DNA of 32,000 bases from Candidatus Saccharimonadota bacterium (GCA_965227835.1 OZ245768.1:1440001-1472000); one strand, 5' to 3'. Positions 1-27,380 are shown, numbered from the stretch's first letter. Program-made: numbers and translations. The notes: a model not told the origin generated them from the letters alone.

Positions 1-600
1 AAATTTCATTTCAATCTGTATCAATAAATCACCGTTTTTCAGCTTTTTCAACTCTGGCAAAACCTTCATTAAAATCTCATACATCATCATAAACTAATTC
101 TCAAATTTCTTTTCAATTTGTATCAATAAATCACCGTTTATCACCTTTTTCAACTTGAGCAAAACCTTCGTTAAAATGTCATACATCATCATAAACTAAT
201 TCTCAAATTTCATTTCAATCTGTATCAATAAATCACTGTTTTTTACCTTTTTTAACTGGAGCAAAACCTCCGTTAAATTCATATACATAATCATAAAAAT
301 TTGGAAATTCTTTTCAATTTGTATCAATAAATCACCATTTTTTACCTTTTTTAACTTGAGCAAAACCTTCTCTAAATTCATATACATAATCATAAAAATT
401 TGGAAATTCTTTTCAATCTGTATCAATAAATCACCGTTTTTCATCTTTTTTAACTTGAGCAAAACCTTCATTAAAATCTCATACATAATCATAAACTAAT
501 TCTCAAATTTTATTTCAATCTATATCAATAAATCACCGTTTTTCATCTTTTTTAACTCTAGCAAAACCTTCTTTAAAATCGTCTATATAATCATAAAAAT
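1..600 (-). repeat. 102-bp (34-codon) tandem coding repeats, WG-type, inside paralog 1 (>=6 copies, continues off window)
   Basis: The unit 'aaatttcatttcaatctgtatcaataaatcaccg...' recurs with a 102-nt period (for example 1 and 103). Two alternating subtypes are present ('...cataaactaattctcaaatttc' and '...cataaaaatttggaaattc'). Confidence 0.9.
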
Positions 601-3106: not shown

Positions 3107-3136
3107 ATTTTAACATAATTATATGTTTTTATGCAA
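3107..3136 (-). promoter_or_regulatory. Putative sigma70-like promoter of paralog 1 (TTGCAT-N18-TGtTAAAAT on minus strand)
   Basis: Minus strand reads TTGCAT (3136-3131), an 18-nt spacer ending in TGt, then TAAAAT (3112-3107), about 30 nt upstream of ATG 3076. Sequence resemblance only, in AT-rich DNA. Confidence 0.3.
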
Positions 3137-3216: not shown

Positions 3217-3271
3217 CAAAAAAAGAGCAGAAGATTAGCTTTTGTTTTAAATTATATTCTGCTCTTTTTTT
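3217..3271 (-). terminator. Rho-independent-type hairpin downstream of paralog 2
   Basis: Arms agagcagaa (3224-3232) and ttctgctct (3257-3265) are flanked by an A-run and a T-run. On the minus strand the hairpin is followed by a T-run. Confidence 0.6.
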
Positions 3272-3311: not shown

Positions 3312-6300
3312 TTATTTTTTTGGTATTTTTTTACAAAACTTTCAATTTGTATCAATAAATCACAATTCTTTACCTTTTTTAACTGGAGCAAAACCTTCAT
3401 TAAAATCTCATACATCATCATAAATTAATTCTCAAATTTCATTTCAATCTGTATCAATAAATCACCGTTTTTTACCTTTTTTAACTGGAGCAAAACCTTC
3501 ATTAAAATCTCATACATCATCATAAACTAATTCTCAAATTTCATTTCAATCTGTATCAATAAATCACCGTTTTTTACCTTTTTTAACTATAGCAAAACCC
3601 TCATTAAAATCTCATACATCATCATAAACTAATTCTCAAATTTCATTTCAATCTGTATCAATAAATCACCGTTTTTCACCTTTTTTAACTCTAGCAAAAC
3701 CTTTGTTAAAACTTAATACATCATCATAAACTAATTCTCAAATTTCATTTCAATCTGTATCAATAAATCACAGTTTTTTACCTTTTTTAACTATAGCAAA
3801 ACCTTCTTTAAAGCCCCATACATCATCATAAACTAATTCTCAAATTTCTTTTCAATTTGTATCAATAAATCACCGTTTTTTACCTTTTTTAACTTTAGCA
3901 AAACCTTCTTTAAAGCCCCATACATCATCATAAACTAATTCTCAAATTTCATTTCAATCTATATCAATAAATCACCGTTTTTTACCTTTTTTAACTTTAG
4001 CAAAACCCTCTTTAAAATCGTATATATAATCATAAAAATTTGAAATTAATTTTCATTCTTTATTAATGAGTCAGTAAATATTATCCTTTTTCCCAATTGC
4101 AACTCCATCTTTATATTCTCATATACTATCCCAAAAATATTCTGATTCAATTCAATCTCAATCTCTATCAACAAACCAATATCCTCAATCACTTTCTATA
4201 CATACAAATTTTTCTCCTTCCTTAAACTTTTTTATTAATTCATCTACAACAGCTTCAAATTTTTCCAAGAAATATCATCATAAATTCTTTATAACTTCTG
4301 CAAAATCATTTTCAAATCCTGATTTTCAAGCTAACTCTATCAAACTATCTATATCCTCTTTAGAAATTTCAAAATCTTTTTTTCACTCCATATCCTCCAA
4401 CAATCTATTAGCAATAACCCCTATCTCATACCGATTTTTATTTCACTCATTTTTAACTGAAGACCTTGCTAAATATTGTAAGAATTTTTTTTGCTTTTTA
4501 TTATTATCTGAAAAACCTATCTCATCTAGCTTTCTAATTTCATAAGGATCTAGGTTTGCCAAATCATAAGAATCAATAAATTTTGTTCCAGAATCTTTAA
4601 AAATATCATTATCAGACATAATATTTCTATCCAAATCATCTCTATCAACATCAATCATCCTATCTTCAAGCAATCAAATATCAGATTTTATAATTAATCA
4701 ATTTTGAGAAAAAATCTTAATCAAAAGTAACCTATCACTCAAAGGATAAGATTCATTTGATATAAATTTTACAATTTTTGTTTTTATAAATTGTTTAAAA
4801 CTAAGTCAAGATTCTTTAAATCATTTAAACATACTTATAAAATTTCATGTTTCAAGAATAGCCTTTTGCAAATAAACTCAAGATTTATCAGATCATCTTA
4901 ATGAAATACTCAAATCAGATCATTTTCATAAATAACTATCTTCTATCTCCTTCAAAGCCTTAATAAGATTAAAAAGAATTCATTCTTTTCATAACTCTTC
5001 TTTACTTAATCAATAAATATAACCTTGAGATTCCATTAAATTCATTATAGCTAAATCATAAGCCTCCTCTTTACTTAGAAAAGGTATTTGTATTCACTTG
5101 TATAATCTAACTATAGCAGGGTCTAGTTCCTCTCTGTCAGGATGTTTTTCTGATTTAATATTTGCTGTTGATATAACACTTGCCTTTTTTAATATATACT
5201 CTTCATCTCAATCTTCTTGAGGAGAATATTTATCTCAAGGTTTTAGAGTAAAAAGATGCTTTACTCTCATAAGAATATCATTAGGAATCAAATCTATTTC
5301 ATCAATAACAGGTATACTTCATTCAACAAAAGATTTTAATAATTTTCATAATTGGGTTCAAGTAGTTGTTCATCATTTTCAATCTGATTTCAAAATGGGT
5401 TTTGCAATAAACTCAGAAGTGGTAATTCAACTATGTCATGAAATTACCCTGGGGCTATAATCTGGATATAATATTTTTAATATTTTTAATGCTAATACTG
5501 TTTTTCAAGTTCAAGTTGCTCATGTAAGGATAACATTTTCTCACATTATTATATTCTCAATTCATTCATCAATTATTTTTTTTCTAGACTCAAAAGTAAC
5601 AAATCCACTATCTTCTAATTCTTTTTTCCAATTTTTCAATTTGTTTAATCTATAAACAGTTGCATTTTCTCTAGAATTTAGCAATTGATTTATTTTTCTT
5701 TCTTCCTGTTTAATCTTTTTTTGAATTTGTTTAATTTTACTCACCTCCGCAGGATTGAGACTTTTTCCTGAAATAAAAGATTTTATCCTTAGAGAAAGAA
5801 TAATTTTTTCAGCCTTTTTGATAGTACTCTCTATCTTTAATATTTCAAAAACTCCTTTTTTTCAATTATTAATTATTTCAAACTTATCTTTTCTTTTATT
5901 TAATTCATCTAGATATAAACTTCTTACATCCTCATTACTATAAAGTTCTCTGATTCTTTCAAGATCATTTACTTCTAATCATTCAGATAGAATATAATCT
6001 AAACTATCATCATCTTCTTCTATACCATTATTTTCAAAATCTTCTCATAATTTTCATCTTATATACAAATCTATTCATTTTTTTAATTCATCTTTTTTTT
6101 CATTATACTTTTTTTCTTTTTCTTTTATTATTTTTTCAAGCTTTGAAGTTTCTTCTTTTTTATATTCTACTTCTTCTCAATCAATTATGTCTTTTACTTT
6201 ATTTTTTGATCAATTTTTTAATCATTCAAGTCATCTTTTTAATCTTTTTATCAATTTAAAATCCTCTTTTAATATTTCTTTAAAATTATCTTTAGAAAAA

Positions 6301-6386
6301 TATGTTCAAACTAAACTTGCTAATTCTACCCCACCAGATTCTATTTCAGAGATTTTATCAGGATTTTCATTTATATTATTATTCAT
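3312..6386 (-). CDS. Coiled-coil / AAA+ (AAA_5, MoxR-like) ATPase / WG-repeat protein, paralog 2 (about 1024 aa)
   Basis: Table-25 frame is open from ATG 6386-6384 to TAA 3314-3312. The repeat part was checked triplet by triplet and the ATPase part was translated. Walker A ILTGATGTGKT, Walker B IPVIDEIDLIP, VISTAN, DPAIVRLY. C-terminus ...ELGFIDTNGKFCKKIPKK*. The standard-code fragments 4443..4673 and 5562..5744 lie in this same frame. Confidence 0.85.
3342..4050 (-). repeat. 102-bp tandem coding repeats (about 7 copies) inside paralog 2
   Basis: Direct reading shows a 102-nt period. The coding frame gives GFIDTDGNEIGELVYDDVGDFNEGFA.VKKGKKR. Confidence 0.9.
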
Positions 6387-6416: not shown

Positions 6417-6446
6417 ATTTTAACATAATTATATGTTTTTATGCAA
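6417..6446 (-). promoter_or_regulatory. Putative promoter of paralog 2 (same motif)
   Basis: Identical motif copy: atttta 6417-6422 and atgcaa 6441-6446 on the plus strand. Confidence 0.3.
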
Positions 6447-6485: not shown

Positions 6486-6539
6486 CAAAAAAAGAGCAGA
6501 AGATCAGCTTTTGTTTAAATTAGTTTCTACTCTTTTTTT
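6486..6539 (-). terminator. Rho-independent-type hairpin downstream of paralog 3
   Basis: Arms agagcagaa (6493-6501) and ttctactct (6525-6533), with one mismatch, flanked by A/T runs. Confidence 0.5.
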
Positions 6540-6579: not shown

Positions 6580-9500
6580 TTATTTTTTTGGTATTTTTTT
6601 ACAAAACCTTCAATTTGTATCAATAAATCACAATTCTTTACCTTTTTTAACTGGAGCAAAACCTTCATTAAAATCTCATACATCATCATAAATTAATTCT
6701 CAAATTTCATTTCAATCTGTATCAATAAATCACCGTTTTTTACCTTTTTTAACTCTGGCAAAACCTTCATTAAAATCTCATACATCATCATAAACTAATT
6801 CTCAAATTTCATTTCAATCTGTATCAATAAATCACCGTTTTTTACCTTTTTTAACTATAGCAAAACCTTCATTAAAATCTCATACATCATCATAAACTAA
6901 TTCTCAAATTTCATTTCAATCTGTATCAATAAATCACCGTTTTTCACCTTTTTTAACTCTAGCAAAACCTTTGTTAAAACTTAATACATCATCATAAACT
7001 AATTCTCAAATTTCATTTCAATCTGTATCAATAAATCACCGTTTTTCATCTTTTTCAACTCTGGCAAAACCTTCATTAAAATCTCATAAATAATCATAAA
7101 CTAATTCTCAAATTTCATTTCAATCTGTATCAATAAATCACCGTTTTTCAGCTTTTTCAACTCTGGCAAAACCTTCATTAAAATCTCATAAATCATCATA
7201 AAAATTTGGAAATTCTTTTCAATCTGTATCAATAAATCACCGTTTTTTACCTTTTTTAACTGGAGCAAAACCTTCTGAAAAATCGTCTATATAATCATAA
7301 AGATTTGAAATTAATTCTCCTTTTGTGTTTATAAATCACCATTTTTCATCTTTTTCAACTCTAGCAAAACCTTCTCTAAATTCATATACATAATCATAAA
7401 AATTTGGAAATTCTTTTCAATCTGTATCAATAAATCACCGTTTTTCATCTTTTTTAACTTGAGCAAAACCTTCATTAAAATCTCATACATAATCATAAAA
7501 ATTTGGAAATTCTTTTCAATCTGTATCAATAAATCACCGTTTTTCATCTTTTTTAACTTGAGCAAAACCTTCATTAAAATCTCATACATAATCATAAACT
7601 AATTCTCAAATTTCATTTCAATCTATATCAATAAATCACCGTTTTTTACCTTTTTTAACTTTAGCAAAACCCTCTTTAAAATCGTCTATATAATCATAAA
7701 AATTTGAAATTAATTTTCATTCTTTATTAATGAGTCAGTAAATATCATCCTTTTCCCCAATTGCAACTCCATCTTTATATTCTCATATACTATCCCAAAA
7801 ATATTTTCATGGAGTTCAATTTCAATCCCTATCAACAAACCAATATTCTCAATCACTTTCTATACATACAAATTTTTCTCCTTCCTTAAACTTTTTTATT
7901 AATTCATCTACAACAGCTTCAAATTTTTCCAAGAAATATCATCATAAATTCTTTATAACTTCTGCAAAATCATTTTCAAATCCTGATTTTCAAGCTAACT
8001 CTATCAAACTATCTATATCCTCTTTAGAAATTTCAAAATCTTTTTTTCACTCCATATCCTCCAACAATCTATTAGCAATAACCCCTATCTCATACCGATT
8101 TTTATTTCACTCATTTTTAACTGAAGACCTTGCTAAATATTGTAAGAATTTTTTTTGCTTTTTATTATTATCTGAAAAACCTATCTCATCTAGCTTTCTA
8201 ATTTCATAAGGATCTAGGTTTGCCAAATCATAAGAATCAATAAATTTTGTTCCAGAATCTTTAAAAATATCATTATCAGACATAATATTTCTATCCAAAT
8301 CATCTCTATCAACATCAATCATCCTATCTTCAAGCAATCAAATATCAGATTTTATAATTAATCAATTTTGAGAAAAAATCTTAATCAAAAGTAACCTATC
8401 ACTCAAAGGATAAGATTCATTTGATATAAATTTTACAATTTTTGTTTTTATAAATTGTTTAAAACTAAGTCAAGATTCTTTAAATCATTTAAACATACTT
8501 ATAAAATTTCATGTTTCAAGAATAGCCTTTTGCAAATAAACTCAAGACCTATCAGATCATCTTAATGAAATACTCAAATCAGATCATTTTCATAAATAAC
8601 TATCTTCTATCTCCTTCAAAGCCTTAATAAGATTAAAAAGAATTCATTCTTTTCATAACTCTTCTTTACTTAATCAATAAATATAACCTTGAGATTCCAT
8701 TAAATTCATTATAGCTAAATCATAAGCCTCCTCTTTACTTAGAAAAGGTATTTGTATTCACTTGTATAATCTAACTATAGCAGGGTCTAGTTCCTCTCTG
8801 TCAGGATGTTTTTCTGATTTAATATTTGCTGTTGATATAACACTTGCCTTTTTTAATATATACTCTTCATCTCAATCTTCTTGAGGAGAATATTTATCTC
8901 AAGGTTTTAGAGTAAAAAGATGCTTTACTCTCATAAGAATATCATTAGGAATCAAATCTATTTCATCAATAATAGGTATACTTCATTCAACAAAAGATTT
9001 TAATAATTTTCATAATTGGGTTCAAGTGGTTGTTCATCATTTTCAATCTGATTTCAAAATGGGTTTTGCAATAAACTCAGAAGTGGTAATTCAACTATGT
9101 CATGAAATTACCCTGGGGCTATAATCTGGATATAATATTTTTAATATTTTTAATGCTAATACTGTTTTTCAAGTTCAAGTTGCTCATGTAAGGATAACAT
9201 TTTCTCACATTATTATATTCTCAATTCATTCATCAATTATTTTTTTTCTAGACTCAAAAGTAACAAATCCACTATCTTCTAATTCTTTTTTCCAATTTTT
9301 CAATTTGTTTAATCTATAAACAGTTGCATTTTCTCTAGAATTTAGCAATTGATTTATTTTTCTTTCTTCCTGTTTAATCTTTTTTTGAATTTGTTTAATT
9401 TTACTCACCTCCGCAGGATTGAGACTTTTTCCTGAAATAAAAGATTTTACCCTTAGAGATAAAATAATTTTTTCAGCCTTTTTGATAGTACTCTCTATCT

Positions 9501-10050
9501 TTAATATTTCAAAAACTCCTTTTTTTCAATTATTAATTATCTCAAATCTATTTTTTCTTTTATTTAATTCATCTAGATATAAACTCCTTATATCCTCATT
9601 ACTATAAAGTTCTCTGATTCTTTCAAGATCATTTACATCTAATCATTCAGATATTATAGAATCTAAACTATAATAATCATCTTCTATACCACTACTTTCA
9701 AAATCTTCTCATAATTTTCATCTTATATACAAATCTATTCATTTTTTTAATTCATCTTTTTTTTCATTATACTTTTTTTCTTTTTCTTTTATTATTTTTT
9801 CAAGCTTTGAAGTTTCTTCTTTTTTATATTCTACTTCTTCTCAATCAATTATGTCTTTTACTTTATTTTTTGATCAATTTTTTAATCATTCAAGTCATCT
9901 TTTTAATCTTTTTATCAATTTAAAATCCTCTTTTAATATTTCTTTAAAATTATCTTTAGAAAAATATGTTCAAACTAAACTTGCTAATTCTACCCCACCA
10001 GATTCTATTTCAGAGATTTTATCAGGATTTTCATTTATATTATTATTCAT
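6580..10050 (-). CDS. Coiled-coil / AAA+ (AAA_5, MoxR-like) ATPase / WG-repeat protein, paralog 3 (about 1156 aa, longest repeat array)
   Basis: ATG 10050-10048 (TAA at 10056-10054 upstream) to TAA 6582-6580. No in-frame TAA/TAG across 6583-8160 (checked); the remainder is near-identical to paralog 2. Contains canonical EKWGFI (TGG Trp) at about 7340. Confidence 0.85.
6610..7715 (-). repeat. 102-bp tandem coding repeats (about 11 copies) inside paralog 3
   Basis: Same unit as in the other paralogs. Contains an internal degenerate copy of the array-boundary unit at about 7261-7340. Confidence 0.9.
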
Positions 10051-10080: not shown

Positions 10081-10110
10081 ATTTTAACATAATTATATGT
10101 TTTTATGCAA
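10081..10110 (-). promoter_or_regulatory. Putative promoter of paralog 3 (same motif)
   Basis: Identical motif copy: atttta 10081-10086 and atgcaa 10105-10110. Confidence 0.3.
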
Positions 10111-10149: not shown

Positions 10150-10205
10150 CAAAAAAAGAGCAGAAGATCAGCTTTTGTTTTAAATTATATTCTGCTCTTT
10201 TTTTA
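10150..10205 (-). terminator. Rho-independent-type hairpin downstream of paralog 4
   Basis: Arms agagcagaa (10157-10165) and ttctgctct (10190-10198), flanked by A/T runs. Confidence 0.6.
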
Positions 10206-10244: not shown

Positions 10245-13211
10245 TTATTTTTTTGGTATTTTTTTACAAAACTTTCAATTTGTATCAATAAATCACCACT
10301 CTTTACCTTTTAAAACTTTAGCAAAACCTTCATTAAAATATCATACATCATCATAAACTAATTCTCAAATTTCATTTCAATCTGTACCAATAAATCACAG
10401 TTTTTTACCTTTTTTAACTGGAGCAAAACCTTCTCTAAATTCATATACATAATCATAAAAATTTGGAAATTCTTTTCAATCTGTATCAATAAATCACCGT
10501 TTTTCATCTTTTTTAACTCTAGCAAAACCTTCTTTAAAATCTCATACATAATCATAAACTAATTCTCAAATTTCATTTCAATTTGTATCAATAAATCACC
10601 ATTTTTTACCTTTTTTAACTTGAGCAAAACCTTCTTTAAAATGCCATACAACGTCATAAAAATTTGGAAATTCATTTCAATCTATATCAATAAATCACCA
10701 TTTTTTACCTTTTTTAACTGGAGCAAAACCTTCTTTAAAATCTCATACATAATCATAAACTAATTCTCAAATTTCATTTCAATTTGTATCAATAAATCAC
10801 CGTTTTTCATCTTTTTTAACTCTAGCAAAACCTTCTTTAAAATCGTCTATATAATCATAAAAATTTGAAATTAATTTTCATTCTTTATTAATGAGTCAGT
10901 AAATATTATCCTTTTTCCCAATTGCAACTCCATCTTTATATTCTCATATACTATCCCAAAAATATTCTGATTCAATTCAATCTCAATCTCTATCAACAAA
11001 CCAATATCCTCAATCCCTTTCTATACATACAAATTTTTCTCCTTCCTTAAACTTTTTTATTAATTCATCTACAACAGCTTCAAATTTTTCCAAGAAATAT
11101 CATCATAAATTCTTTATAACTTCTGCAAAATCATTTTCAAATCCTGATTTTCAAGCTAACTCTATCAAACTATCTATATCCTCTTTAGAAATTTCAAAAT
11201 CTTTTTTTCACTCCATATCCTCCAACAATCTATTAGCAATAACCCCTATCTCATACCGATTTTTATTTCACTCATTTTTAACTCAAGACCTTGCTAAATA
11301 TTGTAAGAATTCTTTTTGCTTTTTAGTATTATCTGAAAAACCTATCTCATCTAGCTTTCTAATTTCATAAGGATCTAGGTTTGCCAAATCATAAGAATCA
11401 ATAAATTTTGTTCCAGAATCTTTAAAAATATCATTATCAGACATAATATTTCTATCCAAATCATCTCTATCAACATCAATCATCCTATCTTCAAGCAATC
11501 AAATATCAGATTTTATAATTAATCAATTTTGAGAAAAAATCTTAATCAAAAGTAACCTATCACTCAAAGGATAAGATTCATTTGATATAAATTTTACAAT
11601 TTTTGTTTTTATAAATTGTTTAAAACTAAGTCAAGATTCTTTAAATCATTTAAACATACTTATAAAATTTCATGTTTCAAGAATAGCCTTTTGCAAATAA
11701 ACTCAAGACCTATCAGATCATCTTAATGAAATACTCAAATCAGATCATTTTCATAAATAACTATCTTCTATCTCCTTCAAAGCCTTAATAAGATTAAAAA
11801 GAATTCATTCTTTTCATAACTCTTCTTTACTTAATCAATAAATATAACCTTGAGATTCCATTAAATTCATTATAGCTAAATCATAAGCCTCCTCTTTACT
11901 TAGAAAAGGTATTTGTATTCACTTGTATAATCTAACTATAGCAGGGTCTAGTTCCTCTCTGTCAGGATGTTTTTCTGATTTAATATTTGCTGTTGATATA
12001 ACACTTGCCTTTTTTAATATATACTCTTCATCTCAATCTTCTTGAGGAGAATATTTATCTCAAGGTTTTAGAGTAAAAAGATGCTTTACTCTCATAAGAA
12101 TATCATTAGGAATCAAATCTATTTCATCAATAATAGGTATACTTCATTCAACAAAAGATTTTAATAATTTTCATAATTGGGTTCAAGTGGTTGTTCATCA
12201 TTTTCAATCTGATTTCAAAATGGGTTTTGCAATAAACTCAGAAGTGGTAATTCAACTATGTCATGAAATTACCCTGGGGCTATAATCTGGATATAATATT
12301 TTTAATATTTTTAATGCTAATACTGTTTTTCAAGTTCAAGTTGCTCATGTAAGGATAACATTTTCTCACATTATTATATTCTCAATTCATTCATCAATTA
12401 TTTTTTTTCTAGACTCAAAAGTAACAAATCCACTATCTTCTAATTCTTTTTTCCAATTTTTCAATTTGTTTAATCTATAAACAGTTGCATTTTCTCTAGA
12501 ATTTAGCAATTGATTTATTTTTCTTTCTTCCTGTTTAATCTTTTTTTGAATTTGTTTAATTTTACTCACCTCCGCAGGATTGAGACTTTTTCCTGAAATA
12601 AAAGATTTTACCCTTAGAGATAAAATAATTTTTTCAGCCTTTTTGATAGTACTCTCTATCTTTAATATTTCAAAAACTCCTTTTTTTCAATTATTAATTA
12701 TTTCAAACTTATCTTTTCTTTTATTTAATTCATCTAGATATAAACTTCTTACATCCTCATTACTATAAAGTTCTCTGATTCTTTTAAGATCATTTACTTC
12801 TAATCATTCAGATAGAATATAATCTAAACTATCATCATCTTCTTCTATACCACTACTTTCAAAATCTTCTCATAATTTTCATCTTATATACACATCTATT
12901 CATTTTTTGAATTCATCTTTTTTTTCTTTATACTTTTTTTCTTTTTCTTTTATTATTTTTTCAAGCTTTGAAGTTTCTTCTTTTTTATATTCTACTTCTT
13001 CTCAATCAATTATATCTTTTACTTTATTTTTTGATCAATTTTTTAATCATTCAAGTCATCTTTTTAATCTTTTTATCAATTTAAAATCCTCTTTTAATAT
13101 TTCTTTAAAATTATCTTTAGAAAAATATGTTCAAACTAAACTTGCTAATTCTACCCCACCAGATTCTATTTCAGAGATTTTATCAGGATTTTCATTTATA
13201 TTATTACTCAT
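10245..13211 (-). CDS. Coiled-coil / AAA+ (AAA_5, MoxR-like) ATPase / WG-repeat protein, paralog 4 (about 988 aa)
   Basis: ATG 13211-13209 (TAA 13217-13215 upstream) to TAA 10247-10245. The repeat part was checked triplet by triplet. Track fragments 11283..11498 and 12387..12569 are in this frame. C-terminus ...KEWGFIDTNGKFCKKIPKK*. Confidence 0.85.
10275..10890 (-). repeat. 102-bp tandem coding repeats (about 6 copies) inside paralog 4
   Basis: Same unit and same frame as the other arrays. Confidence 0.9.
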
Positions 13212-13241
13212 TTTTTATTTATTTAAACATTATTTATAAAT

Positions 13242-13271
13242 ATTTTAACATAATTATATGTTTTTATGCAA
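13242..13271 (-). promoter_or_regulatory. Putative promoter of paralog 4 (same motif), in the divergent region shared with the VWA gene
   Basis: Identical motif copy: atttta 13242-13247 and atgcaa 13266-13271. Confidence 0.3.
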
Positions 13272-13387
13272 GTATTTTTATTTATAGAAATAATTTTTTA
13301 TATTTAAATTAAATACATTCAAATATTTGATTTAACTTTGAATTTGTTGTAAAATATTTTTAGCTATTAACTATAATCTTTATTGAT

Positions 13388-15646
13388 ATGTGAATATCTA
13401 CAACATCAAAATGACCAAAAGAAGAATTGAATCAAACAGGTCTTGACCTTGAAAACCTGAAAAATTGGGTAAATTTTTACTCAAGAAGACTATGAATTAA
13501 CTTTTTGATAGACGAAAATCTACCAGCCCCTGCTGCTATCCCAGATAATTCTACAAAAACAGATCTAACTATTATGTTAAATCCTAAACTTTTGGTTCAA
13601 AAGTTTGGTTTTAAATCAGAAGAGTTACTTTTTATCATGTTTCATGAAATAGAACACCTGATTGAGGGCTCTAAAATGAAAAGTACAGATGTATGAAAGA
13701 AAATAGCAGAAGAAAGAGAAAGAAGATTCAAAGAAGCCAAACATTTTGCATGAGCAATACATACATTAGAAAATGCTGTAAGAGATGTTTATGTTAATAA
13801 TCAAGGTGTGTCAAAAGCTCCTGTTTTATCTAAAACTAGAAAAGAACTTTATGAAAATCATCTTTTTAAACGGCCTGATTTTTTAAAAACCCCCGAGTTT
13901 TGAAAAGATTGAAAAGAAACTTGAAAATTCTCCCCACTTCCAAAACATTTACAATTTGCATATACTATCCTAAGGGAAGCTATGCTTCCAGAAGAGAAAT
14001 GTAATATAGATCCTGATATAAGACGAAAAATAAATAGTTTTAAAAGAATATGAGTTATAGAAGATTGTGTTAATTGAGATTTATCAAACAGATTAAATAA
14101 TATTTGGGACTATCTGGAACCTACCTATAAAAAACTTTTAGAAGAAGATATAAAAAATAAAAATACTCCTGAAAAACCTAATAATAAAAAATGAGATCAA
14201 TGAAATGATGAAGATAATTGAAATTCTTCTAATAATTCAAATCAAAATGGTGATTGAAAACAAGATGAATCAAATGATGGAAATCAAGACTCATCATGAG
14301 GAAATGGACAGGATTTAGATAGGGAAATTCAAAATGATCTTTGAAAAGGAGAAGAGGGTTTAGATAAAGAAAATCAAAATGGTGATTGAAAACAAGACGA
14401 ATCTGAAACTCAAAATCAAGGTTCACCATGAAGAAATGGAGAAAAAACAACTGAAAATGAACCTGTAGAAACAAATTCAAATAGTCCCGAAGATAAAGGA
14501 GATGAAAACAATTGGGCTAAGAATCCTTTTGAGGATTTATATGAGAATTTTTGAAATCTTCCTCATATATTAGATGAAGCTTTGAGTAAAGATGATATGG
14601 AAAAAGTTAAATCTGAAATAGATAAAAAAGTAAATTCAAGTAAGCCAAAATCAAGAGAACAATTAGAGTTAGAAAATAGAGCTGAAAATATGTGAATTAG
14701 CCGTGATAATCAAGAATTTGAAGATATTGTTGATAAACTAAGGGAATATGATAGATTTCTTGAACAGTTAAAATCTGTAAAGGATAGCGAAACTTGAAAT
14801 AGTGTTATGGAGGAAATATGTAGTTTATTTGAAAATATTAGAGCTAGCAGGTTAAAACCTAAAATGAAATCTAAATGACCAGTTGATATGGAACACTGAG
14901 TTAGACTTGATGGTTGATCTGTTGCTACATGAATTGCTGAAATTAAATCTGGAAATTTTAATCCTTTGATGTTTGCTAAAAATGTAACTCATTTAAAAGA
15001 AAATTTACTTGTTTGAGATTTTGATTTAACCATCATTGCTGATTGAACATGAAGTATGCAATGAGAAAAAAATAGACAACAAAAAATTGCTTTTCTTCTT
15101 ATTTTAGAAGCATTAAAAATGCTACATGATAAAATTGAAATAAATAAATCTTATCTGAAAAAACCTATTAATTTTCAAACTACATGATTTATTTTCGGAA
15201 GACATTCTAGATGCATAAAAGAAAAATCTAGTGATATCAAAGATAAAGAAAGACTCCAATTATACTCTTCATTAGATGAATATGATTGACCTAAAAATAA
15301 TGAATGACTTCTACTTGAAAAAATTTATAAAGACTTTCATTATAATACTTCTGAATCTGAAAAAAAAGAAATAAAAGACTGAAAAACTAAAAAAATCATC
15401 ATTGTTTTGAGTGACTGATGACAAGATGTACCAGAATATGAAAGAAAGTTAAGAGAAAATATAAGTAATTTTAGAAATGACTGAGTTTTAGTCTATGCAG
15501 TAGGTATAACAAATGATTGAAGTCCTGTTGTTGATCTATTTTCTTGAGAAAATAAATCTCTTTGATTTTGACAGGTCTGTGAAGATGTTTGAGATCTAGC
15601 TAAAACAATAAAAGACTTACTTGTGGATCATATAAAAGAGATTTAA
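13388..15646 (+). CDS. HExxH metallopeptidase-like (DUF2201_N-type) + von Willebrand factor A domain protein (about 752 aa)
   Basis: Table-25 ORF from ATG 13388 (in-frame TAG at 13361) to TAA 15644-15646, with many in-frame TGA. N-terminal part ...TIMLNPKLL...ELLFIMFHEIEHLIEG (HExxH). C-terminal part DLTIIADGTGSM (MIDAS-like DxTxS) ... KKIIIVLSDGGQD ... VLVYAVGITNDG, typical of VWA. A central G/D/N/Q-rich low-complexity region separates them. Confidence 0.8.
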
Positions 15647-15804
15647 GAAAAAAATATTTATTTTTATCCTAACTAAGTAATTTTTTAATCTTTCTTTAAA
15701 TCTTAATCAGTTCTATTTTTAATAGCTAGAAAATTGTAAGATGAAATATATTAAATGAAACAGGGTTAAATATTTAAATTACTATTTAATTTACTCTTAT
15801 TAAT

Positions 15805-17031
15805 TTAAGATTTTTCTAAAAATTCACTTATCATTTTTATAATTAAATTTTCATTTACTACCTTTCTTCCTGAATCATAAGTTGTTCTTAATGCTTCTTT
15901 TGAGTTATCTAGTTGGTTTATTTCTATATCTTTATTATCTATTAAAATAATTTTTCATTTTGCTTCTAATTTTTTAAGTATATCCAGATATTCCTTTGTA
16001 TATATTTCATCTCATTTATTAAATATAGTTCCAACCTTATTGCTATCAAGTAAATTCAAAATTCTTTCAATTACTTCTCATTTGTATTTATTTTTTGGTC
16101 TATCTGTATTTTCTGGTAGTATTATTATTGGTATAATAGAATCTTTTAAATTTAATCAATCATTACTTAATATTTCATGTCATAATGGTAAAGATTTTCT
16201 TGATAATAAACTATGCTCTATAGGAAGAGGATCTGCAAAACTTCAATCACTTGATTTTATGACTACTCATTCTACATTTAAATTTCTACCATATCATGAC
16301 AATCTAGGAACTGCTTTTGTAGCTTCTAGTGCTTTCATAAATTCTTCTCATTCTAAATATGTAGCTCAATCAACTCATTTTTTATTTGTTATGTAGAAAG
16401 CATTTCAATTTTTATCATCTCTAAGAGGTACTATTAGAGTTATATTTGATTTTTTTAATTCTTCTAAGTTCAATTTTACTCACTTAATTTTCCCTCAGTC
16501 TTCTATATCATTACTGAAAAGCCTTATAACTTCTCCTGGATCTAGAAGCATCTCAAAATCTTTTAATTTTCAAGAAAATACATCTTCTGGATTTTCCAAT
16601 ATAGATGACACTGAAGAACTTGTCGTAAACATTCCTAGTAATATCTCTTTAACTTTTATATTTAAATATTTTAATTCAGCAATACGTTTTAAAAACAATC
16701 TTCAAATTAACTTTATATCACTATTAGGCTTTAGAAATTTTTTATTATCTGCTAATCAATTCAACCATATATTTGTTCATTTTTCAAACTGTCATGAGGC
16801 ATAATAGGCTAGAGTTCAAGCACTTGCTGATGGTCATAGTACATAATTTGCTTTTATTCATTTATCTTCTAACCCTTGTATTGCACCGAGTATCCATGCT
16901 CATTTCATGGCTCAACCTGGAGAAACTATGGCAAATTCAATATTTTTATCTTGTTTTAATCTTTCCATTATTATGTCAATACCTTTTTCTCTTTCATTTT
17001 TCTCATAACTTCTATATTTTATGCTCTCCAT
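15805..17031 (-). CDS. Patatin-like phospholipase (about 408 aa)
   Basis: Table-25 ORF from ATG 17031-17029 to TAA 15807-15805; an alternative in-frame ATG lies at 17076. Motifs: FAIVSPGGAMKGAW (oxyanion Gly-rich loop), YVLGPSASAGTLAYY (variant nucleophile elbow) and SSDGSFADPLPI (catalytic Asp, DG motif). Confidence 0.75.
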
Positions 17032-17344
17032 ACTTAAAATTATTTTAAAAATTAAACTATAAATTAATTTTATCATAAATAATTTTTAAACACAAAAAAT
17101 CTTTTATATCCAATAATTCTATAATTAGCTATTATTTTTAATAAGAAATGTTCAAAATAGTAATTTATATTAAAGCCTTTAGCTTATTTTCAATTTATCA
17201 AATTTTTCTCAAAAAATATTATAAAGTTCATGAACATATAGTGCATGAGGGAATAAAATAAAAAATTTATATTTTTTATTTTCAAGTTTACGTTTATAAT
17301 AATTAAAGTAAAAATTATTTAAAAACCTATTAAAATTATTGTAA

Positions 17345-19059: not shown

Positions 19060-19884
19060 TTACTCACTAAACTTTCCTTTCAAAACATTTCTAAAAAAAC
19101 CGAATAAAAAATCCAAATCAGTTTTTATAGGATGTTTTTCATATTTTCTCAAATATAATCTTTCTAATGCTTCTAAATTTGAAATATTTTTTGTTTTTTT
19201 TAGACAATAATAAATTGAAATAAGGCCATACTTTATATTCTGTTCTAACCTTTTTCTAAACTTAGGTGTATAATCTTCCAAATCCCTTATTTCTTTAGGT
19301 CTAATCCCAACTAGCTTTAAATCTCCTTTCAAAAGCCAGTATATTTGTGGAATTTCATCTATCCAATACTTCCTTAAAAACTTATGGAATCTAGATATGT
19401 AAAGCCCTTCATGGTTAGGTTTTCCTTTAGAATTTAAAGACCTATCTTTGGGATGATTATTCAAAGTTCTAATTTTTGGTAAACTAATATATTTTCATTT
19501 TTGAATTGTTTTTCTCCAATAGAAAAAACTCATATTATGGTTTGTTTCTTCATATTTATTTTTTTCCTCTTCTTCCATCTTTTTTTCCTCTTTAAAAGAG
19601 ATTTTATTTATTACTTTATTATAATTTTTTCAATATATAAAACTATACTCTTCTTCTAAATCTTTTGATACATAATTTGTTATCCACATATCATTTAATG
19701 AATTTTTATCATAGTCTATTGAATCTAGCTCTGGATTTTCTAGTAATTCTCTTGCTTTCATTTTACAATATTCTAAGTATTTATTGGTATGGTTAAATCC
19801 ATATTCATCTTTCAAAAAATACTTATTTTTAAAAATTGTTTCTACACCTTTAAGACAAGAATGTTTGCTTTTTGTATAAATCAT
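19060..19884 (-). CDS. Chimeric protein: N-terminal module shared with the CHC2 gene + bacterial sugar transferase (PglC/WbaP C-terminal type) catalytic domain without TM helix
   Basis: Table-25 ORF from ATG 19884 to TAA 19062-19060; track ORFs 19630..19884 and 19060..19464 are joined through TGA codons at 19632-19630 and 19497-19495. Motifs: GKYISLPKIRTL (KFRTM-like) and FLRKYWIDEIPQIYWLLKGDLKLVGIRP (DE-PQ...VGPRP signature). No hydrophobic N-terminal segment. Confidence 0.65.
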
Positions 19885-19893
19885 AAAAATTTT

Positions 19894-21081
19894 TTACAAC
19901 ATTTCTTTTAAAAAATCTATTCCTAGTTCACGAAAGTTATAATCATATCAATATATAGGTTTTAGGTTTGTATATTCAAGACATTTTTCTAAAATTCTCT
20001 TATCCATTCTTCAATATCTTGAGCTACATCATGATATGATTATATATTCTTTTCATATATAAAATGAACTTCATCAAATTATTTCATAATTATTATATTT
20101 TAGCTCTATTTCACCATGATAACCTGCTCATAAATTAGCCATCTCATCTGTATCATCCATTATCGTAAATAAATCTTTTAATCATTCTATTTTATGAGTT
20201 ATTTGGACTTTTTTATTTCAAAAAACCAGCTGGAAAGTTTTTTTATCTTTTAGATAAACTAATAGGCATTTTCAGCAATCTCAAGGGTATAAATTTCCTA
20301 ATAAACTAAAATTACATAAATTGAGCATATGCAATGGAATATAACTTTCTTTTAGATAATCATTCACAGATTTCTCAATAATAATTAAATCTAATTTTTT
20401 CTTAAAAGTCCTTTTTTCTTCTAGTTTTTTATTCTCTTCAACTATTCTTGCTATTTCCTCTTCTTCTATCTTTTTTTGCTCTTTAAAAGAAATTTCATTT
20501 ATTACTTTATTATAACTTTTTCAATATATAAAACTATACTCTTCTTCTAAATCTTTTGATACATCATTTGTTATTCACATATCATCTAATGATTTTTTGT
20601 CATAATATATTGAATCTAGGTTTGGATTCTCTAGTAATTCTTTTGCTCTCATTTTACAATATTCTAAATATTCATCAATATAACTAGATTCATCTACACT
20701 AGGCAAAAATACTTTTTCTTCATAAGAGTCACAAAATTCTAGTTTTTCTTTTATTCCACATACTTTTTTTATATAAAAAGCTGATTGAATCACATTTTTT
20801 CATGAAACTCTTTGAACTAAGTCAATTATGTCTCAATTCTCTAAACATCAATAACAATAATAACTTCAATGATCTTTGTATATTTTAAAAGAAGCATTTA
20901 CTTCTTCGTGAAAGGGGCATTTAGAGTATTTATTCTTACCCACCTTAATTCATAGACTTTTAGCAACTTTTATTATATCTCATTTTGATATTATTAAATC
21001 AATAGAAGAGGCTTTTAAGCCTCTTCATAAATGGGTTTTTTCAACTTCAAAATAGGAATGTTCATTTTCTACACGAATCAT
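19894..21081 (-). CDS. DnaG-type CHC2 zinc-finger protein (primase-like; possible degenerate Toprim)
   Basis: Table-25 ORF from ATG 21081-21079 (TAA 21111-21109 upstream) to TAA 19896-19894. Zinc finger: CPFHEEVNASFKIYKDHGSYYCYGCLENGDIIDLV. Later LIIIEKSVNDY and IMDDTDEMANLGAG loosely resemble the Toprim E...DxD motifs. Confidence 0.65.
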
Positions 21082-21459: not shown

Positions 21460-22254
21460 CTACCAAATTTCCTCATTAAATATATTTTTTCTAAAAATTT
21501 CATCTAAAAGTTCTACTGGTATTTTTCTTGAATGATGCTTTGAGGCTCTTTCCTCTATAAGTTTCATTTGTTTGTCTAAAAACTCATTTATAATTTTTAT
21601 TTTATTTCCAGAATCTAGTTCGTCTCATGACTTCTTCCTCATAATAAGAACATCAATTTCTTCTCTTAATTCTGGACTTATAAGTTCACAATCATCGTAT
21701 AGCTTTTGAAATTCCATCGGTGGGGCATAATTATATTTTTCTATCCATAAACAAGCAAGAACGGGTCTTAGTACATAAAAATATTTTTTTATTCTAACTT
21801 CATCTTTTTTTAGGTATTCTCTAAAATTTCTCTTTGCCATATGAAGGTAGTGATATATGTAGTTTTTTGGTGAGAAGTATTTTGTTTCTATTTCTAGTAT
21901 ATTTTTTTGAAATTCATCATTTTTTCTATAAATAATAGGTGATTTAATCCATTCAGAGAAGCTAGGATTTCATTTTTGAAATAGATATAAAGTTTTTTTT
22001 ATATCCCAGCCGTTAATGTCTATTTCATCTAATATAGGGTATTCAATTACATCTCTTTTTTTATCAATGGATAAATAGTATTCTATTTTATGTTTGTAAA
22101 TAAATCTTACATCAAAATCACTATTTTTGGACTCAAATCACCAAGCTCTTGATCAAGATTCTACACCAAATAATATTTTTACATTATGTTCTTTTTCGCA
22201 GGTTTTGAATCTTTCTTGTATTTCTTCAGATATGTCTTTTGGTATTTTGTTCAT
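21460..22254 (-). CDS. RlaP-type (pol-beta superfamily) nucleotidyltransferase (about 264 aa)
   Basis: ATG 22254 to TAG 21462-21460 under table 25. [25 protein letters not shown] (GS...D.D nucleotidyltransferase motif, two Gly = TGA) and KKYFYVLRPVLACLWIEKYNYAPPMEF, typical of this family. Confidence 0.75.
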
Positions 22255-22927: not shown

Positions 22928-23989
22928 ATGTTGAATTGATTATCTTTATTTGCTAATGTGTGAATAGCAGAATTTTATTTGAGAGAACTATGAATAAAAG
23001 TAGTGCTTGCAAATGAATTATTAAAAAAAAGAGCTAATTTATATAAACATTTTCATCCTAGTAGTAATATTATTTGTTGAGATATTACAAAAAATGATAT
23101 ATATAATAAAATATTAGAAGAATCAAAAAAAGCAGATGTAGATTTTGTTATGGCAACACCTCCTTGTCAATGAATGAGTATAGCTTGAAAAATGAATGAA
23201 AATGATCCAAGAAATTCACTAATAATGAAAGCTGTTGAAATCATAAAAGAGTTAAACCCTAAATATTGATTAATAGAAAATGTTCCTTGATTTTTAAAAA
23301 CATATATTCAATATAATTGAGAAAAAATATTAATTACTGACTATATTAATAACGAATTATGAGATAATTTTAATCTAAAATTTGATATTTTAGATGCCTC
23401 TAAGCATTGAACACCTCAAGTTAGAAAAAGAGCCTTTGTTTTAATTTCAAATAAAAATACTTGAAAAGAAATTAATTTTCCCAGAGAACAAAAAGAAATA
23501 ACTGTAGAAGATGCAATTTGACATTTACCAAGTTTAGAAAGCTGAGAAACATCAAATATAGAATATCATAATTCTAAAAAACATAATAGTAAACATATAT
23601 TATGGATGAAGAATACACCTACTTGAAAAACAGCATTTGATAATGATAAACACTTCCCTCAAAAAGATAATTGAGAAAGAATAAGATGATTTAATACAAC
23701 GTATAAAAGAATAAATTGGGATAAACCAGCGCCTACAATTACCATGTGTAGTTGAGCAATTTCTTCTCAAAATAATGTTCATCCTTGAAGAAAAAAAGAT
23801 AATTGAGAATTCTCTGATGCTAGAGTTCTTACATTAAAAGAATTATTTATACTAATGTGATTACCAGATAATATTAAATTACCCAATTGGGCTAGTGATA
23901 ATTTTATAAGGCAGGTCATTTGAGAATGAGTACCTCCTATTTTTATTAGAGAAATTTTAAAAGAAATAAAACAAGCGGATTATAATTAA
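22928..23989 (+). CDS. DNA (cytosine-5) methyltransferase (about 353 aa)
   Basis: ATG 22928 to TAA 23987-23989 under table 25. Motif I GLSLFANVGIAE; motif IV ATPPCQGMS (Gly = TGA at 23171-23173); motif VI ENVPGF; GTPQVRKRAFV; motif X GEGVPP. Confidence 0.9.
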
Positions 23990-23990
23990 T

Positions 23991-24917
23991 TTATCATCTT
24001 TTATTAAATTGTAATCAGTGAAAAGCTTCATTCTTTCAACTTCATTTCATTTGCACTGTTATATTTCATATATGAAAACTTCAATTTTCAGTTTCTTTAT
24101 ATCAATTTAAACAACTTTCAGAAATGACTTCATCCATATTTTTTATATAAAAATCAACTACTTGTGTTGAAGAATATTCATTGTTATTTACCAAATAATA
24201 GTCAGCAAAATATTCTTTTTCTGAAAATCATTCTTTCAAAACAATTTCTGTAATCTTTTTTTGATTTTTATTAAAAAAGTTTTTTATTATATTTCTTTCA
24301 TTATCAGTTAATTCATTTATTAACCATCTATTTCTTCTTCATTGCTCTAGTTGAAATAAATTATTTAAACAATTTATACATTCAATATCATTTTTTGATA
24401 TTTTAGTTTTTTCTTCTAATTCGTTTAAACATAATTTTTGTAATTCACTTAAATTATTCCTATTTTCAATTAAAAGTTTTGAGGGCTTATAATTTCAAAA
24501 TCAACAAAATTTTGATAATCAAATATATAATTCATCTGAAAATTCTATTAAATTATTTTTTATAATCTCTCTAAAATTTTTAACATTAGTAATTTGCACT
24601 TGAATACTTCAACTAGAAGATTTAATAGATATTCATTTTTTTGTTATAAAATCATCTTTTTCAAATATTATATGTATATCTGCTTTAGGTGGTTTTTTTT
24701 GTCATCAAAATCTATTTTTCACTTTTTTAGGAGATTTTTCTGCATATATTTTGTAATCTTTAAAATTATTTATTCATAAATCCTTTGAAATATATTCAAC
24801 TATTTTATATCACTCTTTTTTTGTTTTATAATTATTTATTAATTCAACTATAATATCTTCATATCAATATCAATGAAATCGTCAATTTTCTCAAGAAGCT
24901 ACTAAATCTGTAACCAT
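23991..24917 (-). CDS. Putative type II restriction endonuclease partner of the C5-MTase (about 308 aa)
   Basis: Table-25 ORF from ATG 24917 to TAA 23993-23991. It is convergent with the MTase (1-nt gap) and lies 12 nt downstream of the C-like HTH gene. Possible PD-(D/E)xK-like core: PKADIHIIFEKDDFITKKGISIKSS. No family recognised with certainty. Confidence 0.45.
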
Positions 24918-27351: not shown

Positions 27352-27380
27352 AATAAAAAACAAGAGCTTTAGCTCTTGTT
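27352..27380 (-). terminator. Rho-independent terminator of the giant ORF
   Basis: aacaagagc (27359-27367), loop ttta, gctcttgtt (27372-27380). On the minus strand it is followed by a T-run. It overlaps the stop codon at 27381-27379. Confidence 0.65.

Follow-up and report, generated by a model that had tools for sequence, protein, structure and literature searches.

The question raised by a 32,000-nt stretch of a Candidatus Saccharimonadota genome (GCA_965227835.1 OZ245768.1:1440001-1472000; hereafter the window) is what a tandem array of four ATPase genes with variable repeat tails (A1 to A4) does together with V, a gene that joins a head bearing an HExxH motif to a von Willebrand factor A (VWA) domain. 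An earlier inspection of the DNA alone (the sequence-only reading) regarded the array, V and a neighbouring patatin-like gene as a candidate new sensing and effector module. The answer that we favour, with moderate confidence, is that the locus is a paralogue-expanded two-gene module of Candidate Phyla Radiation (CPR) bacteria that does without a diversity-generating retroelement (DGR), in which a sensor ATPase (A) with tail-based recognition is combined with a VWA-zincin partner (V). The structural and evolutionary statements made below deserve much more confidence than this overall reading.

Genetic code, ATPase array and VWA partner

With regard to gene content, the window (25% G+C) yields just 12 open reading frames (ORFs) of at least 80 amino acids under the standard bacterial code (table 11), hardly any of them long, and a dense gene map is obtained when UGA is taken as a sense codon. 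UGA must be read as glycine (code 25) in these genes, because the Walker A motif and the metal ion-dependent adhesion site (MIDAS) regain their glycines solely under this code. They read GATGTGKT and DGTGS when UGA is glycine, as opposed to TWATWTWKT and DWTWS, with W where a conserved glycine is expected, when UGA is tryptophan. The table 11 and table 4 translations were set aside on the basis of these glycines and of the ORF lengths. Glycine is mostly encoded by UGA in these genes, as illustrated by the 68 UGA and 26 GGN codons of A4. Absconditabacteria (SR1) and Gracilibacteria use code 25, and one database homologue of A bears the label Candidatus Absconditabacterales. Given UGA as glycine, the genes delimited by the sequence-only reading are real, and both the ORFs and the 176-bp spacer between A4 and V were recovered. 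The database proteins of these genes (e.g. P0016, P0049 and P0001, the last being the public copy of V, from the same gene) are rendered with UGA as tryptophan, so that ~5-7% of the residues in the public translations are wrong, the Walker A and MIDAS glycines included. Heterologous expression of these genes would need UGA to be recoded to a Gly codon.

The A proteins exhibit an N-terminal region of ~280 residues, which is highly charged (42% K/E/D/R), an AAA_5 core, a helical middle of ~300 residues, for which no Pfam match was found, and a WG_beta_rep tail. The AAA_5 match of A4 (PF07728) scores 41.8 bits for a cut-off of 22, and the GxTGTGKT, IIDEID (Walker B), TAN (sensor-1) and DPAIxRL (arginine) motifs, the last being DPAIVRL in A4, are kept in all four paralogues. 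When a family profile of the AAA region was compared with the PDB, it matched midasin/Rea1 (E 3e-31, several modules), NorQ (1.4e-8) and CbbQ (2e-4). Fold models were made on standard-code homologues, namely P0040 for the A family and residues 1-279 of P0012 for the V head. The AlphaFold model of P0040 is confident (pLDDT 80-93) in its long N-terminal helices, AAA core and lid, and unreliable beyond residue 600. The top 17 Foldseek matches of this model are all NorQ, including NorQ-NorD-VWA complexes, and CbbQ (E ~1e-9, TM-score 0.72-0.79). By sequence and by fold, the latter on the homologue P0040, the A ATPase belongs to the NorQ/CbbQ/midasin branch of AAA_5. The earlier designation as MoxR-type is correct for the MoxR clade taken broadly and incorrect for MoxR proper, since the domain is a NorQ/CbbQ-like AAA_5. 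No transmembrane-like segment or signal peptide was found in A or V (maximal 19-residue hydropathy at most 1.3), and both are predicted to be cytoplasmic.

An identical 30-nt element, TTGCAT-N17-TAAAAT, is present upstream of the four paralogues, and a hairpin followed by a T-run is present 3' of A2, A3 and A4. As each paralogue has its own promoter-like element, and A2-A4 their own terminator-like hairpin, the duplicated unit is the whole transcription unit. Judged from these elements, the four paralogues are transcribed independently, and the divergence from V across the 176-bp spacer that had been attributed to the array applies to A4 and not to A1-A3, which have promoter-like regions of their own. 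The A2-A4 cores are 99-100% identical in DNA, with 16-21 differences per 719 codons. The first ~750 nt of the A1 coding sequence are likewise 99-100% identical to A2, and the AAA/middle region of A1 is just 43-87% identical at the DNA level. The AAA region of A1 is of the orthologue type, with GPTGTGKT and a 28-residue insert, as in the orthologue of the related locus L004, and A1 and this orthologue share 86-91% protein identity in two 50-column alignment windows. By these alignments, A1-A4 form a mosaic. Their diversity resides in the tails, in both repeat number and repeat sequence, not in the cores: the WG repeats number at least 7 in A1, 8 in A2, 12 in A3 and 7 in A4, and 27 of the 30 full repeats are distinct. 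The variation is found mainly at repeat positions 7, 33, 34, 12, 14 and 2, and the invariant positions are G4, A6, K10, G15, I17, G21, Y29 and D30.

The domain composition that had been read for V was confirmed at both ends of the protein and revised in one respect, the family to which the head belongs. The C-terminal VWA domain matches PF00092 above the gathering score (27.2 bits for 23.8), this family is matched by all eight V-family members, and the PDB profile matches of the domain are integrin I and TRAP VWA domains. The MIDAS sequence, DGTGS, has a Thr where the first Ser is expected; most relatives have DGSGS, and D676 is invariant. The HExxH motif of the head is found in 25 of the 26 full-length V homologues. 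The invariant residues of the head are H86, E87, H90, E93, N129 and PKHxQF (residues 185-190), and D133 is invariant in 8 homologues and, in a set of 21, conserved in at least 90%. E93 or E/D128 are candidate third zinc ligands. These observations are those of an uncharacterised family that is zincin-like by its motif. An exhaustive profile search found this head in 459 clusters (50% identity), mostly of 600-750 residues, and ten divergent members exhibit VWA alone in Pfam. The head itself has no Pfam match even at E<=10, and profile searches give no support to its description as DUF2201_N-like: PF13203 appears at E 0.77 in one of eight family members, in none of the ten divergent members and not in V of the window. 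PF09967 is not matched by the C-terminus of V, which gives just PF00092/PF13519, and SprT and CobT as a Pfam link of the head were noise-level matches.

The AlphaFold2 model of the P0012 head (pLDDT 83, pTM 0.79) consists of a three-stranded sheet with the HExxH motif on a long helix. None of its matches in the PDB is significant: selecase, a minimal HExxH peptidase, takes the first seven places (E 0.2-2), and further zinc peptidases come next (E up to 10). In the BFVD viral structure library, the best match is an unnamed 635-residue protein (E 5.7e-4); the next two are phage/halovirus proteins of 687-784 residues annotated as 'VWFA domain-containing' (E 0.011 and 0.11), and SprT/IrrE/M48-type matches appear at E>0.3. 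Viruses may thus have proteins of the same head-plus-VWA layout. A tblastn search with P0012 found nothing in 50,697 phage records.

Related loci and their retroelements

A census by tblastn under code 25 comprised ~38 V-containing loci. Word-based searches gave 33 matches for the A family and 15 for close relatives of V, the latter all CPR-like, and a metagenome scan gave 26 further loci. In about 18 of the 20 loci with enough flank, a gene of the A family, whose members in relatives are AAA_5 proteins of 900-1050 residues, adjoins the V homologue. This conserved linkage, in an ATPase branch that works with VWA partners, strongly supports the ATPase-VWA pairing that had been proposed from the window. 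The closest relatives, L004 and L005, in which V is 61% and 52% identical, both use code 25 and share the divergent arrangement of A and V. The usual gene order in relatives is A / Avd (opposite strand) / RT / V, with an RVT_1 reverse transcriptase (RT) gene directly upstream of V, often overlapping it, and a bAvd nearby. No third gene is conserved across the loci: A, V, RT and Avd alone recur, joined in one sub-clade by DUF5674 and a protein of 111 aa. The gene downstream of V changes from locus to locus (SIMPL, glycosyltransferase, EF-Tu, helicase-like).

The sub-clade with DUF5674 and the conserved 111-aa protein is Moraniibacteriota-like (L002:4767-5443, L008:9309-9991 and L014:4588-5261), and these two genes are not in the window. 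In L008:6233-12040, from a standard-code CPR bacterium, A, an RT remnant, DUF5674, the 111-aa protein and V are located between fusA (EF-G) and tuf (EF-Tu), in the str operon.

In most relatives, the 3' end of the A gene is the variable repeat (VR) of a DGR, the order being A-VR / template repeat (TR) / Avd / RT / V. The mismatches between TR and VR fall at template adenines in 16 of 16 cases in L002, 17 of 17 in L004 and 16 of 16 in L005, and an automated scan gave adenine-biased pairs (fraction 0.76-1.00) in 13 distinct loci. The 1048-aa protein of L004 aligns to A1-A4 over ~770 residues and then switches to another C-terminus, which ends ...GFLRGNDAYGG...SFRPSV. By this alignment, the A core of ~770 residues, comprising the N-terminal helices, AAA_5 and the helical middle, is orthologous to the DGR targets. 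The A family is the AAA-ATPase DGR target class of CPR bacteria, as far as this class is characterised in PMC10907252, and the window holds a DGR-less derivative of it. The sequence-only reading, which took the module for a candidate new one, missed this link. The C-lectin fold of the VR domain of relatives is a literature attribution alone. Two side observations were made on these retroelements. In L004:4211-4942 (-) and L005:3230-3961 (-), an unusual Avd is encoded as a 243-aa fusion, in which MutS domain I (PF01624, E 1.5e-6) is joined to a C-terminal half resembling bAvd (E 0.009). In L001:3212-4243, and also in L019 and L030, the TR serves a second VR as well, which is located in a short target gene standing by itself (343 aa in L001), so that these are two-target DGRs.

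In the 32-kb window, no homologue or remnant of RT, Avd or a VR domain was found at E<0.5, and no adenine-biased repeats were found, the maximal one-base fraction being 0.56 and that of WG pairs at most 0.42. In the A-family search, PF14903 is restricted to proteins of this genome, and the tails elsewhere are a DGR variable region, WD40 or TPR. Several relatives resemble the window in this respect. Without a DGR, L036 exhibits an A-WD40 gene directly followed by V, and L037 an A-TPR gene, an ankyrin-protein array and then V. L008 has just an RT remnant with its A-V pair, and in L015 and L020 A and V are not separated by an RT; the small ORFs after A in L015 show no significant similarity to known VR domains. 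As the DGR-less relatives keep the pair, the A-V pair is the stable core, and the tail and the means of diversification are interchangeable. The variable repeat domain that had been noticed on the ATPase is in keeping with this, since it has the behaviour of a swappable and diversified sensor domain (VR, WG, WD40 or TPR). In the window, gene copies and repeat shuffling would replace the retroelement, because the same ATPase is the DGR-hypermutated gene in relatives. That the A tail is hypermutated in relatives points to a ligand that varies or evolves fast. The DGR-less module of the window is an argument for diversifying pressure on the tail as a recognition domain, and for a function of the A-V pair that does not depend on the retroelement.

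Other arrays were observed next to V homologues. In L013:436-9891, L007:1274-9243 and L037:11326-16556, four to six tandem paralogues of repeat proteins (ankyrin or unassigned) are located directly upstream of V. Within an array, these proteins share a ~40-aa leader, e.g. MNIFDGHE.K.PEELAKELGISDL.V..NAG in L013. Such arrays may be another supply of variable binders for the VWA partner. The likeness of the L013/L007 leaders to the A N-terminus (VELASLVG) was seen by eye only, and no homology is claimed.

Mechanism, alternatives and neighbouring genes

The mechanism that we propose is based on analogies with NorQ-NorD, CbbQ-CbbO and midasin (PDB structures; PMC7159879). The WG tail of A would bind a variable ligand, and A would form a ring like NorQ and CbbQ, on which V would dock via its VWA/MIDAS, as NorD does on NorQ and CbbO on CbbQ. 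ATP hydrolysis would then drive the remodelling of V, or of a client bound to it, by which the zincin head would be gated as output. The diversity of recognition would be generated by germline paralogues and repeat shuffling, not by retroelement hypermutation. The most probable role would be to recognise, inside the cell, molecules that evolve fast, such as proteins of phages or other invaders or proteins of a host or partner, as in MoxR-vWA conflict systems. By this analogy, the module might act as a conflict sensor, a role to which we give a little less than an even chance. A broader proposal is more tentative: the commonest DGR target class of CPR bacteria could be, instead of a lone AAA-CLec protein, one partner in a machine made up of a NorQ/CbbQ-type ATPase and a zincin-VWA protein, which would act inside the cell as a sensor/effector in the MoxR-vWA style, with a chassis that alternates between retroelement hypermutation of a single gene and germline tandem paralogues with shuffled WG (WD40, TPR, ankyrin) tails. 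If true, bacteria with genomes of ~1.5 Mb would offer a counterpart to the contrast between somatic and germline-encoded diversity of immune receptors.

A and V could instead be a housekeeping chaperone pair that inserts metal into, or remodels, one fixed enzyme complex, like NorQ/NorD, CbbQ/CbbO and CobS/CobT. NorQ and CbbQ are indeed the closest solved relatives of A, and the layout of V resembles that of CobT/BchD-type partners, which exhibit a head, an acidic linker and a VWA domain. One distant V member has a weak CobT_C match (E 0.005), and the neighbours are largely housekeeping genes, L008 lying inside the str operon. However, hypermutation of the client-binding tail in 13 or more distinct loci, its replacement by WG, WD40 or TPR repeats in others, and its four-fold presence with divergent sequences in the window would be unexpected for a fixed client. 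The family is also small and patchy, as the 33 A and 15 V matches of the word-based search indicate, and no nor, cbb or cob genes are located nearby. We therefore consider a housekeeping pair unlikely. A role at the cell surface, in which the variable tail would be an adhesin by which episymbionts attach to their host, like Mtd or TvpA, is suggested by the fact that WG repeats occur in numerous surface proteins and by the giant, probably surface-exposed protein encoded in the window. CPR DGRs have also been proposed to serve host interaction, as reported in PMC10907252, which cites Paul et al. 2017. Such a role is improbable, since neither A nor V exhibits a signal peptide or transmembrane segment, an AAA+ ATPase needs cytoplasmic ATP, and the VWA partners of NorQ-type rings are cytoplasmic in all solved precedents.

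The position of V directly downstream of RT, often overlapping it, in most loci could also be explained if A and V were accessory factors of the retroelement, which would remodel the RT/Avd/RNA complex or the target DNA; the window copy would then be a decaying leftover. This is very improbable, as A is itself the target of mutagenesis, with the VR in its 3' end. In addition, the pair is intact without RT in the window, L036, L015 and L020, the RT has decayed in L008, and the pair has expanded in the window to four genes, all of them intact, each with its catalytic motifs conserved and a promoter of its own. The three-component system of the sequence-only reading, in which repeat sensing and ATPase/VWA remodelling would activate the adjacent patatin as a membrane-targeting effector, has hardly any likelihood left. 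The patatin domain is weak and genuine (29.6 bits for a cut-off of 27.7), its GGxxKG (oxyanion), GxSxS and DGS motifs align with those of PlpD, and the gene ends 158 bp from the end of V. Nevertheless, it is convergent with V, and no patatin was found in the related V loci (0 of about 38), in which the downstream neighbour of V always differs. The gene is also a near-orphan, its one other homologue among 5.8 billion proteins being a 228-aa fragment with a neighbour unrelated to A or V. The effector function is thus largely refuted by synteny, and we place the gene outside the module. The upstream start of the patatin gene adds a hydrophobic N-terminus, MIKLIYSLIFKIILS (window 17031..17076), with a 19-residue hydropathy of 1.58, which could be a membrane anchor.

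Several observations weigh against our own interpretation of the locus as a DGR-less module of a sensor ATPase and a VWA-zincin partner. The V head is a putative peptidase on the strength of its motif and of PDB fold matches that are non-significant (best E 0.2). The physical link between A and V is presumed by analogy. The near-identical cores could reflect a very recent duplication, not selection for a repertoire. The VR domains of relatives match no C-lectin family in Pfam, and the model has a pLDDT below 50 in this region. A DGR may be present elsewhere in the genome; because no TR-like match exists in the window, such a DGR would not target the WG repeats. A defence role is suggested by analogy, and no PADLOC or NCBIfam model matches: among the PADLOC 2.0 protein models, V and the patatin have no match, and A has a 35-residue P-loop match alone. 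Finally, the neighbours are mostly housekeeping genes (DHODH, TruB, signal peptidase).

The argument from a defence-island setting, for which the sequence-only reading had proposed a check, is weak for the same reason: besides these housekeeping genes, the surroundings comprise one type II restriction-modification (RM) pair, ~7 kb away, and an RlaP nucleotidyltransferase, the three genes lying 6-9 kb from the module. The RM pair encodes glycine by UGA alone (23 and 22 UGA codons, no GGN) and differs in this from its neighbours, which suggests a different origin within code-25 lineages. The genes at 19060..19884 (-) and 19894..21081 (-) share a duplicated segment of ~65 residues, YLEYCKM.A.ELLENP...EEEYSFIYGK.YNKVIN. 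One of them exhibits just the C-terminal part of a Bac_transf sugar transferase and the other just a DnaG-type CHC2 zinc ribbon, and both look chimeric or decaying. At 27379..>31998 (-), a giant and probably surface-located protein of more than 1539 residues is encoded; it has one strong transmembrane segment (residues ~909-931), after which comes a long low-complexity tail rich in K/E/D/N. The coordinates of the module and of its neighbours are given in Table 1.

Table 1 Features of the A-V locus and its surroundings, in window coordinates
Feature	Position	Strand	Basis or remark
A1, first paralogue	<1..3076	-	3' end cut by window edge; full length 1065 aa (P0017)
A1 WG repeats	about 1..676	-	repeat parsing
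Promoter-like TTGCAT-N17-TAAAAT upstream of A1	3107..3136	-	30-mer match
Terminator-like hairpin + T-run downstream of A2	3218..3264	-	
A2	3312..6386	-	1024 aa: helical N-terminus, AAA_5, helical middle, WG repeats
A2 WG repeats (8)	about 3315..4115	-	repeat parsing
Promoter-like element upstream of A2	6417..6446	-	copy of same 30-mer
Terminator-like hairpin downstream of A3	6487..6532	-	
A3	6580..10050	-	1156 aa
A3 WG repeats (12)	about 6583..7779	-	repeat parsing
Promoter-like element upstream of A3	10081..10110	-	copy of same 30-mer
Terminator-like hairpin downstream of A4	10151..10197	-	
A4, paralogue divergent from V	10245..13211	-	988 aa
A4 WG_beta_rep domain, 7 repeats of 33-34 aa, putative ligand-binding sensor	10248..10940	-	PF14903 E 7.6e-41
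A4 AAA_5 core, aa 284-427	11931..12362	-	PF07728 E 1.3e-10
A4 Walker A GATGTGKT	12324..12347	-	motif alignment
A4/V divergent intergenic region, 176 bp	13212..13387	.	exact spacer length
A4 promoter-like element inside A4/V spacer	13242..13271	-	copy of same 30-mer
V, 752 aa	13388..15646	+	zincin-motif head, low-complexity linker, helical region, VWA
V N-terminal domain, aa 1-258	13388..14161	+	family without Pfam match
V HEIEHLIE, aa 86-93 (HEIEH aa 86-90)	13643..13666	+	
V linker, aa 259-372	14162..14503	+	N/G/D/E/Q/S-rich low complexity; acidic/polar, disordered
V VWA domain, aa 546-712	15023..15523	+	PF00092 E 5.3e-6
V MIDAS DGTGS, aa 552-556	15041..15055	+	D676 in LSDGG motif
Patatin-like gene	15805..17076	-	alternative start 17031; Patatin E 9.5e-7; judged outside module
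RlaP nucleotidyltransferase, stand-alone	21460..22254	-	PF10127 E 2.4e-88; between chimeric genes and RM pair
C5 cytosine methyltransferase	22928..23989	+	PF00145 E 1.7e-50
R.HinP1I-like endonuclease	23991..24917	-	E 7e-7; convergent with methyltransferase

Comparison with known systems

DGRs are unusually abundant in CPR bacteria, and AAA ATPase-C-type lectin (CLec) fusions are the commonest architecture of their targets according to PMC10907252, which cites Paul et al. 2017. Published surveys present the targets of CPR DGRs as AAA-CLec fusions or as proteins without recognisable domains. The module of the window resembles this class by its orthologous A core of ~770 residues and by the 13 distinct DGR loci, which include the code-25 relatives with V 52-61% identical. 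It differs by the absence of RT, Avd, TR and VR, by its WG_beta_rep tail and by its four tandem paralogues. A zincin-VWA partner of the AAA-CLec targets is not mentioned in the literature covered, in which Paul et al. 2017 is represented through PMC10907252. As far as checked, three elements are new, namely the zincin-motif/VWA partner located right after RT in CPR cassettes, the NorQ/CbbQ assignment of the DGR target ATPase, and the DGR-less form with WG tails and a four-gene array. The target class thereby gains a testable mechanism, with an ATPase ring, a MIDAS adaptor and a peptidase as its parts, and the window provides a natural experiment, as the module exists there without a DGR and with diversity from four paralogues and repeat shuffling.

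With regard to NorQ-NorD and CbbQ-CbbO, these systems, whose ATPases belong to the CbbQ/GvpN/NorQ group of MoxR AAA+ ATPases with VWA adaptors as partners, are the best structure and sequence matches, and, like A, their ATPases have an adjacent partner with a C-terminal VWA/MIDAS. NorQ and CbbQ are, however, stand-alone ATPases of ~260 residues with fixed clients (cNOR and Rubisco), whereas A comprises ~1000 residues, including a helical N-terminus of 280 residues and a variable tail. The zincin-motif head of V is not found in NorD or CbbO. DUF2201 proteins (PF13203 + PF09967) exhibit an HExxH head followed by a VWA-type domain, as V does; in contrast, V has no significant profile match to PF13203 and none to PF09967, and carries a classical PF00092 domain.

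The MoxR-vWA-DGR conflict systems (Kaur et al. 2020, PMC7159879; Dore et al. 2024, PMC10907252), in which FGS/CLec domains are diversified by DGRs, share the proposed logic. Those that are diversified by DGRs are known from cyanobacteria and gammaproteobacteria (PMC7159879; PMC10907252), and CPR hosts were set aside by Kaur et al. in their multicellularity statistics (PMC7159879). In the ternary systems, the variable CLec is part of the vWA protein, and the peptidase resides in a protein of its own, VMAP (PMC7159879; PMC10907252). In the window module, the variable domain belongs to the ATPase and the zincin-like head to the vWA protein, and there is no third conserved component; no VMAP-type Pfam match was found in the window proteins. 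Moreover, the ATPase is a NorQ/CbbQ-like AAA_5, not MoxR proper as in the ternary systems. Both nevertheless combine a MoxR-clade ATPase, a vWA protein and a hypervariable ligand domain with a peptidase as candidate output, in the same logic of sensor, ATPase and effector, which ties the CPR DGRs to the paradigm of the MoxR-vWA conflict systems.

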